Shown here: positions 2,423 through 60,058 of the stretch, piece after piece | Layout: each line of letters begins with the position of its first letter | Position numbering within the stretch: position 1 is the stretch's first letter | From: Eledone cirrhosa | Taxonomy: Eukaryota | NCBI GenBank assembly: GCA_964016885.1 | Contig: OZ024742.1 | Location: 99,758,001-99,822,000 of the forward strand | Length of the DNA stretch: 64,000 nt | Direction: 5' to 3' | Program-made: the position numbers and the translations under genes | The notes under the pieces: model-generated | Seen by the model: the letters and a program-made list of their open reading frames with translations, nothing else | Databases searched by the model: none | Told to the model about the DNA's origin: nothing

Positions 2423-3340
2423 TATTGTTATACTTGGGGAGGGTCATATTGTTGTAATAATATTGCCGGAAATAATAACAGAACACACTCACTGTTTGGT
2501 TTGTTTTCGCTTCTGTATCTTTTATATCTCCACAGTTAATTCATTCGGTCCTCAATGTTTACCATTGACTGACCAACGTTCAAAAATACAGATATAATAT
2601 AGATATAAACACATATATATAGTCTATCAAAGTTCTTTTGTTGCACATCTGCAACATCGTCAGTGGTGCTATTATATTCCTCCTGCTGTATTGTATATCT
2701 ACGCCATCTTTATTTTATCTGTTTATTTATTTATTTATTTTTGTCTTCTTCTCTGCGCATGGATTTGCGTGTGTCTATAATGTTTGGCGTGTGTTCGCGT
2801 TTGGGTGACTGTGTTTTGGTTATTGTATTCCATCTTAGTTTACTAGTGTGTGTTTATATGTGTTTGTTGTTATTGTGCTTGTGTTTTTATTTATTGATTT
2901 ATTTATATTTCTCTTAAGTCAGTATTGTTTGTTTGGTTGTTGTTATTCCATTCATTTTTTGTTTAGCTTTGGCCATCTAAATAAATAAATAAACAGATAA
3001 AATAAAGATGGCGTAGATATACAATACAACAGGAGGAACATAATAACACCACTGACGATGTTGCAGATGTGCAACGAAAGAACTTTGATAGACTATATAT
3101 ATGTGTTTATATCTATATTATACCTGTATTTTTGACCGTTGGTGAGTCAGTCGTAATCATTGAGGACTGAATGAATTAACTGTGGAGATATAAAAGTTAC
3201 AGAAGCGAAAACCAACCAAACAGTGAGTGTGTTCTTTTATTAATTCTGGCAATATTATTACAACAATATGACCCTCCCCAAGTATAACAATATTTGTTTC
3301 GACACAAGATTTCATATCAAAAATCTCGCAAAACAAAGAT
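2423..3340. mobile_element. Non-autonomous fold-back element (PLE pLTR-derived) with an HHR in each arm
   Basis: Arms ~2423-2740 and ~2975-3293 are reverse complements. The right arm has a tail to ~3340 and the flanks are TA-rich. Tail and arm match 61995-62100 at the 3' end of the PLE. Confidence 0.8.
3048..3089 (+). ncRNA. Type I hammerhead ribozyme (weak stem I)
   Basis: acca-CUGACGA-U-GUUGCA gaug UGCAAC-GAAA-GAAC-UU-ugau. The inverted copy at ~2625-2667 has GAAA changed to AAAA. Confidence 0.7.
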
Positions 3341-3485
3341 ATATATCCATATATTTATTTATATCAGAGTGTTGTAGTTTGCTTGAAGCATTGTTGAATA
3401 GGAAACACAAATTCTAATAATTTTGAAAACCATACAATGCATTAGAAAGAAAATCAATATTGTTAAGTTAAGAAAAGGATCTTAC

Positions 3486-3536
3486 CTTAGCGAATTTTGT
3501 AATCCCCAATATTTTCGGGTTATCAACGGAGTATCC
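3486..3536 (-). CDS. Candidate 51-nt internal exon (GYSVDNPKILGITKFAK) of an unidentified host gene
   Basis: Acceptor cttttatgtctctcatAG, donor AAG/GTAAG, length a multiple of 3, open frame. Confidence 0.4.
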
Positions 3537-6247
3537 CTATGAGAGACATAAAAGATCAATCGGTTTGGACTTGCTTGTTTAGAGAGCAGATTTAAGTTAA
3601 TTGAAATGATAAGATGTTAAAATTTCGAACGTGTGCGTTGTGAAATGTATGATATATAAATGTGGGTGCGCGAATGTAAGTGTACTTAGCGGGATGTTTG
3701 TATGTGTGTGCATGAATATAAGTTTATGTAGTGAAAGTTGTATGCGAATATGTATATAATAAAAAAGGGAAAAAATGTGTACTATATATGTATGTGTGTG
3801 TGTGAGTCTAAGTTTGTTTGCCTAGTGAAGACATAGATTTAATTTGAAAGAAAGAATGAACCACAAGGAAATACGTATTTGTTAGGCTACCCATTCACTC
3901 TTAGTAGTATTCTGAAATGGGCTTTGAGAGTGGGTAATTGAGGCTTTATAGCTCACTTCTTAATAAATATCTTAACTAACTACCAACACGAGTGCTAATT
4001 ATATGCAAATTACTACGTCCATTTCAGAACACTATTAAGAGCGAATGGATATGTTGTCCTTATATAGGGTTTGCACAATATTGCTTTCGGTTCCCCCATT
4101 CTTCGTTGTTTTTCATAAATAGAATAAACAATATGAAAATACATATTCTATTTCTTCATTTTTTGTTTCATTTTACTGGAGTCGCAGCCTATTTTGTATT
4201 ATATATTAAATTCTTCAATCTTTCCAGCTACAGGGAAATAGGGATATTTGGCAAGTTTTCATAATCAATATATATATATATACTCGTGCACGTTAGATTT
4301 GAAATGTTGTAGGCATAGTTAATTTATATATATTTTTTATTAATACATTTATATATTTATTTATTTATTTACGGTTCGTCACAGTGCCAAACGGATACAT
4401 CCATATTAACCCCTCATATGACGTGTATTATGCCGGTTTGATATGTAGCTACTAACAATATGCAAAAGAGCACCTCTCTTTTACTGGTACTACGATATTT
4501 GGTGGGCTTTGTAACGCCATTAATTACGTATTTCTTTGTGGTAGATAAATAGTGTTGACAAGTTTTCAAAGATCCCGATAGAGATAAAAAGAAATAGCTA
4601 TTAAGGTTGTTCATCCAATTTTCTATCTACAAAGATATGTCTAAATATGACATCACTATCTGCACAGTAATATTTATATTATAAATGAAAAAAAAACACA
4701 AAACGCAGGAGGCAGTTTTACGCAGTTATATTAGGTTCACTCTTAGAGAAAGAGTGTGTGTGAGAGAGAGAGAGCATGTGTGTGTGTGTATGTGTGTGTG
4801 TGTGTGTGTGTGTGTGTGTGTGTGTGTGTGTGTGTGTGTGTGTGTGTGTGTGTGTGTGTGTGTGTGTGTGTGTGTGTGTGTGTGTGTGTGTGTGTGTGCG
4901 TGCGAAAGTGTGTGAAAGTGTACGAGTTGAAAACCTAATAACGCTTTAAATATTATATAATTTTATTGTTATCTTTCTCTGAATTTGTATCTAAAGACAA
5001 TTTACTGTCGCATAGATACGTAGAAGAATGTAAAAAATATGATGAAATATGCAGGCAGCCAGATAGATATACAATCATGTTGACTGCTTTTGGCAATTGC
5101 CCATGGTTACTGAGAGCATATTATCAATATTTAACAGTTGCATGTAGAAATTAACCGCCAATCAAAAGAGTCGTCAGGTCAATGTTGAACTTAATGGCTT
5201 CCGCGTAGAAGGAGAGTTATTCAGGTTTTACATCGTCTTGATGGGAAGTTGACTGGTTTAAAGCTAGGTGTATTCTGTCAGTGCTAACTGAATACTTACT
5301 TCCTCACCATCACATTCATTTTTGTTGTTGTTTCATTGTCCCAGTGGATAGACTGGCAAATTAGCTGCCCCGGAATGTAGCGAAAGCGATGCACTGGAAG
5401 TGCCAGCTCTCGTTACCCAGTTCATTCTTGTAGATTACTATCTACGTGCCAATCTCAGTAAGCAGTTGTCTCAGAGTTGTCCAATGTGGGCTGACCTATT
5501 CTGCATGAATTTTCATAAAATTTGTCTTTCTTCTTTGAAGATATCCTTCTCTTTCTAATATTCTTACAATCTTCAATAGTTGGTCAATTTGGCGTAGAGG
5601 CTAGAGCGTTGAATATTTGTTATGGAACTCTGTGTTCTGAATTCAAATCCCGCTGATGGCCACTTTGTCTTTCTTCGTTCACTATCGATGAACATGTATC
5701 AGACAAGAGTTGAGCAACTCTCTTTCTTTCCAAATGTCACATCCTGGATTTTCAGAGGAACTTCGGATGGGATGTCAAGAGTGTGACTGTGTCTGCTCCC
5801 GACTGCATGGGCAGCTAAAATACTTGAATTATATTAAACTCATACTCGTTTGCAATTTGTGACCGACGTTTTTACTGTTCCCCAATAGTATTCAATTAAG
5901 CATTCTATCCATTGTTTCCTTATTGTAACACGACGACAAGGGACACTAATTGTGGCCAGTGGAGAGATTTCTTGGTTTCCTGCGTTCCTCATGAAATCGA
6001 TGCAAAATGTCTTCGGTCATACACGGAACTGCAACTGTTTATGCAACAATGGTGGCTGTTGAAAAAGCAACCTCTGAAACTTTTGGTGATGGTTCGGCTA
6101 GTGCTTTCTCAGTCTCCCTCTCTTTTTCTTTCTATCTTTCTCTCACTGTCATACAATATTTCTCTTACTCTTTCTTTCTTACACTTTCCCTCTTTCATTT
6201 TCTCTCTCTATCTCTCTCTTTCTCTCTCTATATATATATATATATTT

Positions 6248-57901: not shown

Positions 57902-58521
57902 TTATCTCTCTCCGTATACAATTATTTGTCTCCCTGTCTGTCTGTATTTTCCTTATGCATTCTCAAACGGCTCGACCAAATCAAATCAAATTTTCACAAG
58001 GTAATAGTATTAGACCTCCGGATTTACAACATGTAATTTTTATTTTCATTTCGATTAAAACAATATAACATTTTAACTAAAATAATCTTTCTATACTAAA
58101 CTATAATAAACTGACATTTTATAACACAACGACGACGACGTTGCATTTTGTATCTGAGTGTCTATTTATGTGTCTATGAGTGTGTGTGTGTGTGTTTGCG
58201 CGTTCGTTACGTACGTTAGGCCTTAGTAAGTTACATACACACACATCTTCACTTAAACATTTCATCAGATACACAGAGAATTAAACACACACACACACAT
58301 CTACACATGTGATGACACAATGAATATTCTTTACCCTAAGGTGCTTCAAGATTGAAAGATTTTTCATTTCTAAATTTCATTATCACTACAATTTTGATAT
58401 ATTTTTAAATAGAATATAGATATTTTGAAATAATTATAAGAAAAAAAATATTCATATATATTATTTACTAATCTGAATAAGAACAGCAGAAACCCGGGCA
58501 GCGCTGGGTCATTCAGTTAGT
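57902..58521 (+). mobile_element. Helitron-like non-autonomous element (decayed)
   Basis: 5' 'gtctgtctgt..aaacggctcgaccaaatc..aaatttt'. 3' GC hairpin cccgggcagcgctggg followed by cagTTAGt. Confidence 0.45.
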
Positions 58522-59292
58522 AAGATATATTCATTTTAATCTTTGGATTTACAATTAGAAATTTCCTTTTAAAATCAGCTATTTATTTAGTTAGGTTAGA
58601 GTATCTTTACTATAGTTAACTTGATCTCAACTTCTTTTCGACCTTCAGACAATACAAACCGTTATCTTATGCTTTCTTTATTATATTCAAATCTACCCCA
58701 ATGTTAACATAATAATTCATATTTTCATTTATATTCTAGTGTTATTTCTTTCTCACGCTATATCGTAATTCCACATCAGGTTTCCTTAATTACATATTTA
58801 ATTAGATAATACCAATGTTTTAACATATACCAAAATGTCTTCACTAAGAATATTTAATTTACATACATACATACATACATACATACATACATACATACAT
58901 ACATACATACATACATACATACATACATACATACATACATATGTACATAATATTGATTGAACTCAACTCTGTAAGACATAATGTTATTTAAAGTTATGTA
59001 TGGTGTATATTCATATCTTTGTATATCTAAGCAAGCAGAAGTTCTCTTTGTGCAAAATAATTAAGACGCAATACTATTAAATGTATTTGTTTTCAGACTG
59101 CATATAATATGCGTGTGTGTCAGTGAATAACATTGTAAATATGTATATATATACATACATAGATACATACATTCAAATCACAGACACACACACAGTCACA
59201 CACAGTCACACACAATCACACACACAAACACCCACATATTCACACATTATATGTATATATATATATATATATATATATATATATATATATAT

Positions 59293-60058
59293 ATAAGTTA
59301 TATGAATCAAAGTTCTGTTCAAATCATTTATATGCTTACAATTGTTTCTTCCAAACCGAGGTTTGGGGGTCTTCAGAGCAATTTATTAATGATTGATTAC
59401 ATACATGACCTCCTTTTCAATCCACGAGACATACAGAAACATACAGATAAAAGATAAAAGATACATTACCAGTACAACCCCCTTAATACTATTGATTGCC
59501 CGCTTGAAGTGCTTGTATTACATATAACACCCTGCCGCACTATAATATTATATAAATAAGACACACGTGCTTGCCACACGTGTAACTATTGCACACACTG
59601 ACTACCCTATCGCATTAATTTCATGTTGTATTTTAACTTTAATTTTAATTTTATCCTCTTTTGATATGACTGTAATCTTTAAATGTATACTGCCACGCTA
59701 AATGTTATAATGGATGTCAACCCACCGAGCAACAATATATGCATATGTTTCTGTATGTTTCTTGGGTTGAAAAGGAGGTCATGTATGTAATCAATCATTA
59801 ATAAATTGCTCCGAGGACTCCAAACCTCGGTTTGGAAGAAACAATTGTAAGCATATAAATGATTTGAACAGAACTTTGATTCATATAACTTATATATAAC
59901 TGCTCTGTAAAACAACTGATGTTATTACATTGAGCTATTTATCTTACTGGTAATAAGGTAGTAATATATTACGGCCTATCGCTATTTAGGGTTTGAAAAA
60001 ATATATATAACTACAAAAGTTTTTGTATATGCATAACCATAAATAGTATCCTTAATAC
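59293..60058. mobile_element. Fold-back HHR element in (TA)n
   Basis: Arms 59293-59443 and ~59744-59893, a ~300-bp spacer and a right tail. Confidence 0.85.
59333..59380 (-). ncRNA. Type I HHR
   Basis: ugcu-CUGAAGA-cc-CCAAACC uc GGUUUGG-aa-GAAA-CAAUUG-UA^-agca. The right copy at 59807-59853 reads CCGAGGA. Confidence 0.85.

Follow-up and report, generated by a model that had tools for sequence, protein, structure and literature searches.

Palindromic insertions in the window

The analysed window, a 64,000-nucleotide stretch of DNA from Eledone cirrhosa, contains eight palindromes, all flanked by (TA)n runs and each with arms that are 91-98% identical and a one-sided tail of about 45-165 nt. 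These palindromes are the 3′ ends of eight distinct element families (A, B, C, D, E, H, L, and M). Each pairs a short-end (S) arm with a tailed long-end (L) arm, as listed below with the hammerhead (HHR) motifs and an ORF-bearing relative of family A.

2423..2977, minus strand: family A, S arm; HHR-like core at 2663
2978..3340, plus strand: family A, L arm; HHR-like core at 3052; 47-nt tail at 3294-3340
6246..6525, minus strand: family B, L arm; 140-nt tail at 6246-6385; HHR core at 6494
6564..6703, plus strand: family B, S arm; HHR at 6595-6648
7442..7632, minus strand: family C, S arm; HHR core at 7565
7661..7922, plus strand: family C, L arm; HHR at 7728-7796; tail at 7852-7922
8016..8413, minus strand: family D, S arm; variant-core HHR at 8106
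8419..8982, plus strand: family D, L arm; variant-core HHR at 8726; tail at 8817-8982; other copies with Hydra-type GIY-YIG
29160..29281, minus strand: family E, S arm; 3′ half of HHR only
29277..29616, plus strand: family E, L arm; core at 29284 and GAAA at 29407; tail at 29483-29616
42828..42881, minus strand: family H, S arm; ends at the family's fixed 5′ stop
42890..43003, plus strand: family H, L arm; 3′ half of a U3-A8-type HHR; tail at 42944-43003
54408..54539, minus strand: family L, S arm; without HHR
54540..54860, plus strand: family L, L arm; HHR at 54545-54582 in the spacer; tail at 54783-54860
59293..59443, minus strand: family M, S arm; HHR core at 59376
59744..60058, plus strand: family M, L arm; degenerate HHR at 59811; tail at 59894-60058; other copies with Hydra-type GIY-YIG
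61997..64000, minus strand: family A relative; RT end, CX4CxxC linker, GIY-YIG at 62502-63599, HHR at 62220

The arms, one-sided tails, and (TA)n flanks lie where an earlier sequence-only reading had located them, except for two tails: that of family D ends near 8982 rather than 8930, and that of family H is about 20 nt shorter, by deletion, than the 80-nt family tail. The apparent spacer of family A (2738-2977) is the further reach of its S arm toward the ORF end, and the L arm of family E begins at the family's fixed 5′ stop, which is the first base of HHR stem I. The tail of the family A relative also adjoins (TA)n, and its inverted partner is absent to about 5 kb past the window. An assembly fold-back artefact is ruled out by the 2-9% divergence of the arms and by ends that lie at family-fixed sites.

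The HHR core, or the GAAA/stem III half, points away from the centre in all eight palindromes, as the sequence-only reading had claimed. Complete HHR-like motifs occur on both arms in families A, B, C, D, and M; in family E the HHR is whole on the plus strand only, with its core inside the spacer, in family L it is confined to the spacer on the plus strand, and in family H it is represented by a 3′ half only. Searched with a strict descriptor that requires a palindromic stem III, the window yielded four matches, compared with none in each of four shuffles; the descriptor misses the weak or variant motifs of families A, D, E, and H, which were read by eye from family copies. Stem I is weak in family A, the cores of families D and H are variant, and the fold stability of the family H region is not above that of shuffles (z=-1.05). 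Judged by predicted structure, these are type I HHRs on the sense strand of the pLTR. Among the best 150 of 277 matches, an Rfam scan of the window returned only sub-threshold microRNA-like matches and no hammerhead family. The HHR cleavage site was also considered as the 5′ stop of family A and rejected, with breakpoints there in 4 of 75 arms, a share not above that at other positions.

Assignment to Penelope-like elements

The palindromes are insertions of Penelope-like retroelements (PLEs), a known kind of element that the sequence-only reading had not named, because copies coding for RT and/or GIY-YIG are present in four of the eight families and a fifth, family E, has a Hydra-type ORF start. 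Coding copies of family A, with 38 homologues, contain RT (YSRYVDDI), CX4CxxC, and GIY-YIG; these domains were read from broken copies, in which Pfam gave RVT_1 below cut-off (E=0.014) and no match for GIY-YIG. Coding copies of families D, H, and M contain CxCX5C and GIY-YIG along with CxxC and CxH motifs, covering part of the RT and the GIY-YIG in family D and the GIY-YIG end in families H and M, and family E, whose copies appear young, retains the ORF start only, with RWR and DKT motifs. Both the single ORF with RT and C-terminal GIY-YIG expected of EN+ PLEs and their insertion pattern of 5′ truncation, an adjoining inverted copy, and a tail at one end were found.

In the available text of Craig et al. 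2021 (PMC8557442), the Neptune and Nematis clades are defined by a CX2-5CxxC linker and a CCHH motif in GIY-YIG. Family A has a CTNRKCIIC linker, two Cys in the GIY-YIG core, and His residues downstream, and by these motifs appears to fit the Neptune/Nematis definitions. The Hydra clade is recognized by a CxCX5C linker, CxxC, CxH, RWK, and DKT motifs, and a (TA)n target, and families D, E, H, and M would be assigned to it on motif grounds. A tandem arrangement that gives a pLTR, with the tail running into the next unit, is present in families A, C, and E; the family A tail (3294-3340) is the start of the next unit's ORF and encodes its first codons. No ORF was seen within 1.5 kb upstream in the copies of families B, C, and L that were read; families C and L look like short non-autonomous tandem HHR-bearing units, and family B may have a long UTR.

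Polarity and end pairing across the genome

Genome-wide, 92 of 95 opposite-strand pairs no more than 4 kb apart are head-to-head (p=7e-24), and the remaining three are tail-to-tail. Two discrete 3′ ends, S and L, were found in each of the seven families tallied; family A also has a minor third end, about 12 nt further. The proposal that both outer junctions are RNA 3′-side ends is supported.

One S end is paired with one L end in 118 of 122 resolved inserts, compared with a chance expectation of at most 50% if the ends were independent (p=2e-30). The S/L:S/S:L/L counts are 24:0:0 in family A, 50:1:1 in family H, 15:0:0 in family E (11 of whose 17 pairs were chosen as close exact pairs), 11:1:1 in family B, 10:0:0 in family C, 5:0:0 in family M, and 3:0:0 in family D; all counts are of old copies in one assembly, with no integration intermediate among them, and the tally does not extend to family L pairs or to elements F, G, and I. 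The exceptions are two S/S and two L/L inserts, and a further L/L insert with arms 99% identical (L033) came from a tail-selected set. Another 27 partnered inserts without resolved ends were omitted (10 in A, 8 in H, 7 in C, and 2 in E), including three in family A in which the S end is paired with a still shorter end.

Solo copies are frequent, accounting for 54 of 88 copies in family A and 15 of 75 in family H. S is an end in its own right, because solo copies also end there (35 of 54 in family A), and no tail stub was hidden upstream of 59 solo family A copies. The outer ends of family A adjoin (TA)4 or more in 25 and 23 of 29 pairs, start sites show 1-8 nt of TA-like microhomology, and S sites are AT-rich. 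Empty sites were sought via nested insertions, but no TSD could be read because the nested pieces examined mostly belong to another short element.

Shared alleles, 5′ stops, and junctions

The two arms of an insert commonly share subfamily alleles, in 41 of 54 family A pairs compared with 16% of random pairs and in 8 of 12 family H pairs compared with 6%, levels unreached in 2000 permutations; one insert, L183, is discordant (0/4). Gene conversion could inflate this sharing, but only 10% of rare variants are common to both arms, which counts against it.

Of the expectation that the short end is fixed while the apex varies, the first half held in all families; the apex, however, is almost invariant in families H and E, in which most arms, S and L alike, stop at one 5′ point. 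In family H, 93 of 135 arm starts fall within -7..+12 of this point, and overlap or filler is limited to 11 nt or less in 54 of 60 junctions. When a cap-derived G was considered, a G was found before the family H stop in 15 of the 51 non-templated cases, 5 of which are attributable to the partner arm.

Proposed mechanism of insertion

The inserts probably arise in one event, in which two target-primed reverse transcriptions (TPRT), one on each (TA)n strand, are joined head to head. The element would be tandem, and therefore its 3′ end would read on into the next unit, the first stretch of which is the tail, as seen in families A, C, and E. The RT-GIY-YIG protein would nick both strands of the self-complementary (TA)n, as has been observed in vitro for another PLE. 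Judging from the fixed ends and their pairing, priming would then occur at S on one strand and at L, which lies 45-165 nt further 3′, on the other, possibly aided by the 1-8 nt of microhomology. Both cDNAs would be copied from a single RNA, or else from sister RNAs of the same source element, and each would run until it aborts or reaches the RNA 5′ end, a position that is fixed in families H and E. Joining of the cDNA 3′ ends, with an overlap or filler of a few nt, would be followed by filling of the gaps, and extension of one strand alone, or loss of one arm, would leave a solo S or L copy.

A more specific version, that insertion is concerted, is plausible but tentative. A dimeric RT-endonuclease would position one of its two active sites at S and the other at L on a single RNA, and therefore the two strands of the target would always start at different sites; both arms would be first strands copied to the RNA 5′ end and joined there. 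If true, one rule would cover polarity, tail, palindrome, and (TA)n preference, and it would be common to Neptune/Nematis-type, Hydra-type, and non-coding families.

Resolution by an endonuclease, which Craig et al. 2021 (PMC8557442) put forward for the tail, is unlikely. Both arms would reach L and the element's GIY-YIG would trim one at S, giving one S and one L by design; the AT-rich S sites are in keeping with this, as is the tail of Drosophila virilis Penelope, reportedly required for endonuclease recognition (cited in PMC11167929). It does not sit well with inserts in which a full S arm adjoins an L arm made up of tail alone, and in vitro mapping places an RT start at each boundary of the tail (PMC11167929).

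Snap-back, in which a cDNA begun at L folds and copies itself so that the copy meets the target at S, is quite unlikely; self-priming on an antisense template was proposed for PLE inverted junctions in the accessible text of Arkhipova et al. 2013 (PMC3846280). It would explain the shared alleles, the near-perfect hairpins that make up about a quarter of apices, the equal-length apices of 12 of 50 inserts in family H and 6 of 24 in family A, and the common apex, at a short self-complementary word, of inserts L036 and L127 in family A. It is disfavoured because under it the short arm should never extend further in than the tailed arm, whereas the S:L:equal counts for the arm that is longer at the centre are 24:14:12 in family H and 11:7:6 in family A, with the proviso that later deletion at the centre could make the S arm seem longer. 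In 9 of 50 family H inserts the L arm begins no earlier than +55 (the S site is +61) and the arms barely overlap or miss, while the S arm starts at -2..+21, near the common 5′ stop; simple snap-back cannot yield L arms that start near or beyond the S site. Nor does it fit the solo copies that end at S, and a tail cannot come from cDNA begun at S. Of the two routes that the sequence-only reading had offered, priming at two positions, as two fixed sites on the two (TA)n strands, is the better supported, and snap-back is not its equal.

Two insertions that landed independently in one TA run, or a MITE derived from a DNA transposon whose ends have decayed, are refuted as a general rule and highly improbable, given the head-to-head and S/L counts, the alleles common to both arms, the tight junctions, and family copies that code RT and GIY-YIG rather than transposase; nested and neighbouring insertions are common, and such events may explain a few exceptions, such as the three tail-to-tail pairs and L183. 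The earlier rejection of a MITE is likewise upheld by the asymmetric ends, with neither symmetric TIRs nor a transposase partner found.

Comparison with known systems

EN+ PLE insertions, as described in the available text of Arkhipova et al. 2013 (PMC3846280) and Craig et al. 2021 (PMC8557442), likewise have RT with C-terminal GIY-YIG, 5′ truncation, tandem units, a head-to-head inverted copy, a one-ended tail running into the ORF start, a pLTR HHR, and (TA)n targets, with tails of 30-40 nt compared with about 45-165 nt here. The accessible parts of these accounts contained no mention of the one-S-one-L rule, of alleles shared between arms, or of fixed 5′ stops, and the pairing rule was not found in a literature search whose reach did not extend to supplements and older subscription papers. 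How PLEs build inverted structures is named an open question in the text available of PMC8557442.

In vitro work on PAc, a Poseidon element of Anolis (Frangieh et al. 2024, PMC11167929), comes closest in its available text: both strands are cleaved and extended, two RT start sites bound the tail, the target is AT-rich, and a PAc dimer is predicted. Start sites are reported there not to differ between the strands, and no homology to the target is described, both points against the mechanism proposed here, where 1-8 nt of TA-like overlap is seen; the main text draws no link to inverted inserts or to different sites on the two strands of one target. Because both the architecture (PMC3846280, PMC8557442) and the pair of RT start sites that delimit the tail (PMC11167929) are already published, the finding adds detail to a mechanism rather than describing a new system. 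From the counts, the two strands of a single target molecule would be expected to begin at different sites in about 97% of cases, both copied from the same RNA source, and the counts weigh against self-priming as the main route. Such hairpins are also easily mistaken for MITEs or microRNA precursors.

LINE-1 twin priming also uses both target strands to prime cDNA on element RNA, resulting in an inverted junction, with a variable second site and two pieces that do not overlap. In contrast, both sites are fixed here, and overlap of the two arms usually produces a palindrome. Families C and L resemble non-LTR retrozymes or non-autonomous PLE derivatives (bioRxiv 10.64898/2026.07.22.740005) in their short tandem HHR units with no ORF seen; unlike retrozymes, they land as head-to-head S/L pairs, as the coding families do.

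Palindromic inserts and hammerhead polarity

Self-comparison of the window after masking of simple repeats recovered the inverted repeats described in the sequence-only reading, plus a few extra ones, within a (TA)n-rich animal assembly of 3.0 Gb.

Palindromes in the window (letters also denote genome-wide families; HHR, hammerhead motif)
A, 2423-3340, arms with whole outward HHR on both sides
B, 6246-6703, arms with whole outward HHR on both sides
C, 7442-7922, arms with whole outward HHR on both sides
D, 8016-8982, arms with whole outward HHR on both sides
E, 29160-29616, whole HHR on one strand
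H, 42828-43003, half HHR only
L, 54408-54860, whole HHR on one strand
M, 59293-60058, arms with whole outward HHR on both sides

In these palindromes the two arms are 91-98% identical, (TA)n adjoins both outer ends, and, as had been claimed, each HHR core or half points away from the centre. A strict descriptor found four HHRs with palindromic stem III in the window versus none in each of four shuffles. The one-sided tails are likewise present, but the length of the D tail had been understated and the H tail carries a deletion.

Further palindromes at 30150-30381 (F) and 31125-31313 (G) have a left-side tail and the same polarity; F carries an HHR on both strands and G is a diverged relative of family H. 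Palindrome I (43640-44626) has 118-nt arms that are 100% identical, an outward-reading CUGAUGA core, and a partial tandem copy, and is probably a young insert from another family. HHR core variants include a U3-A8 type in H, and perhaps D, and C4 in M, and stem II is very long in E and H.

Penelope-like coding copies

Elsewhere in the genome, family A copies have, upstream of the arm and in the same orientation as the HHR, coding sequence for a reverse transcriptase (RT), a CX4CxxC linker, and GIY-YIG; a protein search returned 38 relatives, one annotated as a GIY-YIG domain protein. An ORF 59% identical to that of family A lies at window 62502-63599, with its own HHR and tail. Copies of D, H, and M end C-terminally in a CxCX5C-GIY-YIG domain and the family E ORF starts with RWR and DKT motifs, features of the Hydra clade of Penelope-like elements (PLEs) as defined in PMC8557442. 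No ORF was seen in the copies read of families B, C, and L, the last two of which are built of short units in tandem. In near-full-length family A copies the tail continues into the ORF, with the first ATG immediately ahead of the short end; this is the anatomy given for Pen2a_Av in PMC3846280.

The N-terminal half of the family A ORF (L190, L198, L210, L214) contains a long asparagine-rich low-complexity stretch reminiscent of the N-rich insertions in Penelope elements of rotifers. Family E has near-identical copies (L337-L346) with units of ~6.5 kb, arrayed both in tandem and inverted, and is the leading candidate for a retrotransposon family with recent activity. Other features of the window include a second, GC-rich and non-palindromic PLE-like RT in two frames with an LADKGG motif (26950-28793, plus strand), with an HHR-like core after it at 28723; a long open RT frame of the non-LTR LINE type (9213-11180, minus strand); and a GC-skewed tandem repeat of ~1.9 kb that is open in several phases (32357-34285). 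An element of 170-230 nt has landed time after time at the same ATTATTATT-like site, immediately behind the HHR of family C, and its target duplications differ in length (loci L068, L069, L071, L073, L085, and L094 of family C, and L048 and L096).

Two constant outer ends and their pairing

Copies were sampled through exact patterns just inside the short end, which gave 38 to 16,451 matches per family, with up to the first 100 listed per search. Among the matches listed, 92 of 95 opposite-strand pairs within 4 kb are head to head. Inserts were read for families A (88), H (75), E (35, of which 11 were picked as close pairs), C (28), and B (25), as were 20 loci each for M and D. Every one of these families has two outer ends, short (S) and long (L), each at a constant position, so the proposed fixed short-end point holds across many copies. 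Where both outer ends were readable, S was paired with L in 118 of 122 inserts (S/S 2, L/L 2), a tally that leaves aside 27 partner-bearing inserts whose ends were obscured by subsequent insertion, by decay, by read-through, or by the limits of the locus; an additional L/L insert (L033), from a tail-selected set, stands outside the 122. Solo copies are frequent; in family A they number 54 of the 88, with 35 ending at S, 15 at L, and 4 otherwise.

The 16,451 exact matches belong to the 20-nt probe of family H, whose inserts are mostly ~200-nt stubs and rank among the commonest short hairpins of the genome.

5′ stops and a shared source element

An apex varying within families had been anticipated, and family A arm starts are indeed scattered, clustering broadly upstream of the HHR but not at its predicted cut; those of H and E fall mostly at one point. 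In H, 93 of 135 starts lie within -7..+12 of a single base inside loop II of the variant HHR; in E, the start of most paired arms is base 1 of HHR stem I. Both stops have a YY-A context, which we take to be initiator-like, and T runs directly precede the stop base in several H arms, a pattern that tailing of free cDNA ends could produce. These stops suggest run-off at an RNA 5′ end, probably set where transcription begins in the 5′ pLTR, and run-off would explain near-perfect palindromes without snap-back.

The two arms of an insert carry the same allele at subfamily-diagnostic columns in 41 of 54 informative cases in A, versus 16% for random pairs (at most 33% in 2000 permutations), and in 8 of 12 in H versus 6%, a sequence comparison indicating that both arms derive from one source element. 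Rare variants are common to both arms in just 10% of cases (random 2.5%), and post-insertion homogenisation therefore looks modest.

Origin of the two arms

Two mechanisms had been offered, priming at two positions and snap-back of the cDNA, and the new counts make double target-priming the probable one. A single RT-endonuclease complex would likely nick both (TA)n strands and prime on one strand at S and on the other at L, with the 1-8 nt of TA-like overlap found at these sites, and the two resulting cDNAs would then be joined head to head. The template may be one RNA or two sister RNAs; PLE RTs are not known to have RNase H, and its absence would permit one RNA to be copied twice. Of the 60 H junctions, 23 overlap, 9 are blunt, and 28 contain filler; the overlap or filler does not exceed 11 nt in 54 of them, as expected if two cDNAs are end-joined.

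Under snap-back, an L-started cDNA folds back to give the S arm, which could then never exceed the L arm, while an S-started cDNA could not supply the tail. Snap-back is weakened by inserts in which the S arm is longer than the L arm: 24 of 50 in H and 11 of 24 in A, among them the window copy of A and insert L034 (2.7 kb/1.7 kb). Moreover, counted from the H 5′ stop, the L arm begins at +55 or further in 9 of 50 H inserts (S = +61), and A and B also include L arms made of tail only. Deletion of the centre after insertion could imitate a longer S arm, yet those nine H inserts keep an S arm start at -2..+21.

Comparison with known elements

Neither PLE twin priming nor an S/L pairing rule was found in the titles, abstract openings, and passages covered by the literature searches. 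The architecture is already in PMC11167929, PMC8557442, PMC3846280, PMC4209133, and bioRxiv 10.64898/2026.07.22.740005, which together describe inverted pLTRs with head-to-head polarity, a tail on one side, HHRs, and (TA)n as the target; PMC4209133 also describes the U3-A8 core and HHR pairs on opposite strands at a spacing of 100-700 bp. The feature is real and its architecture already known, and the counts are what is new.
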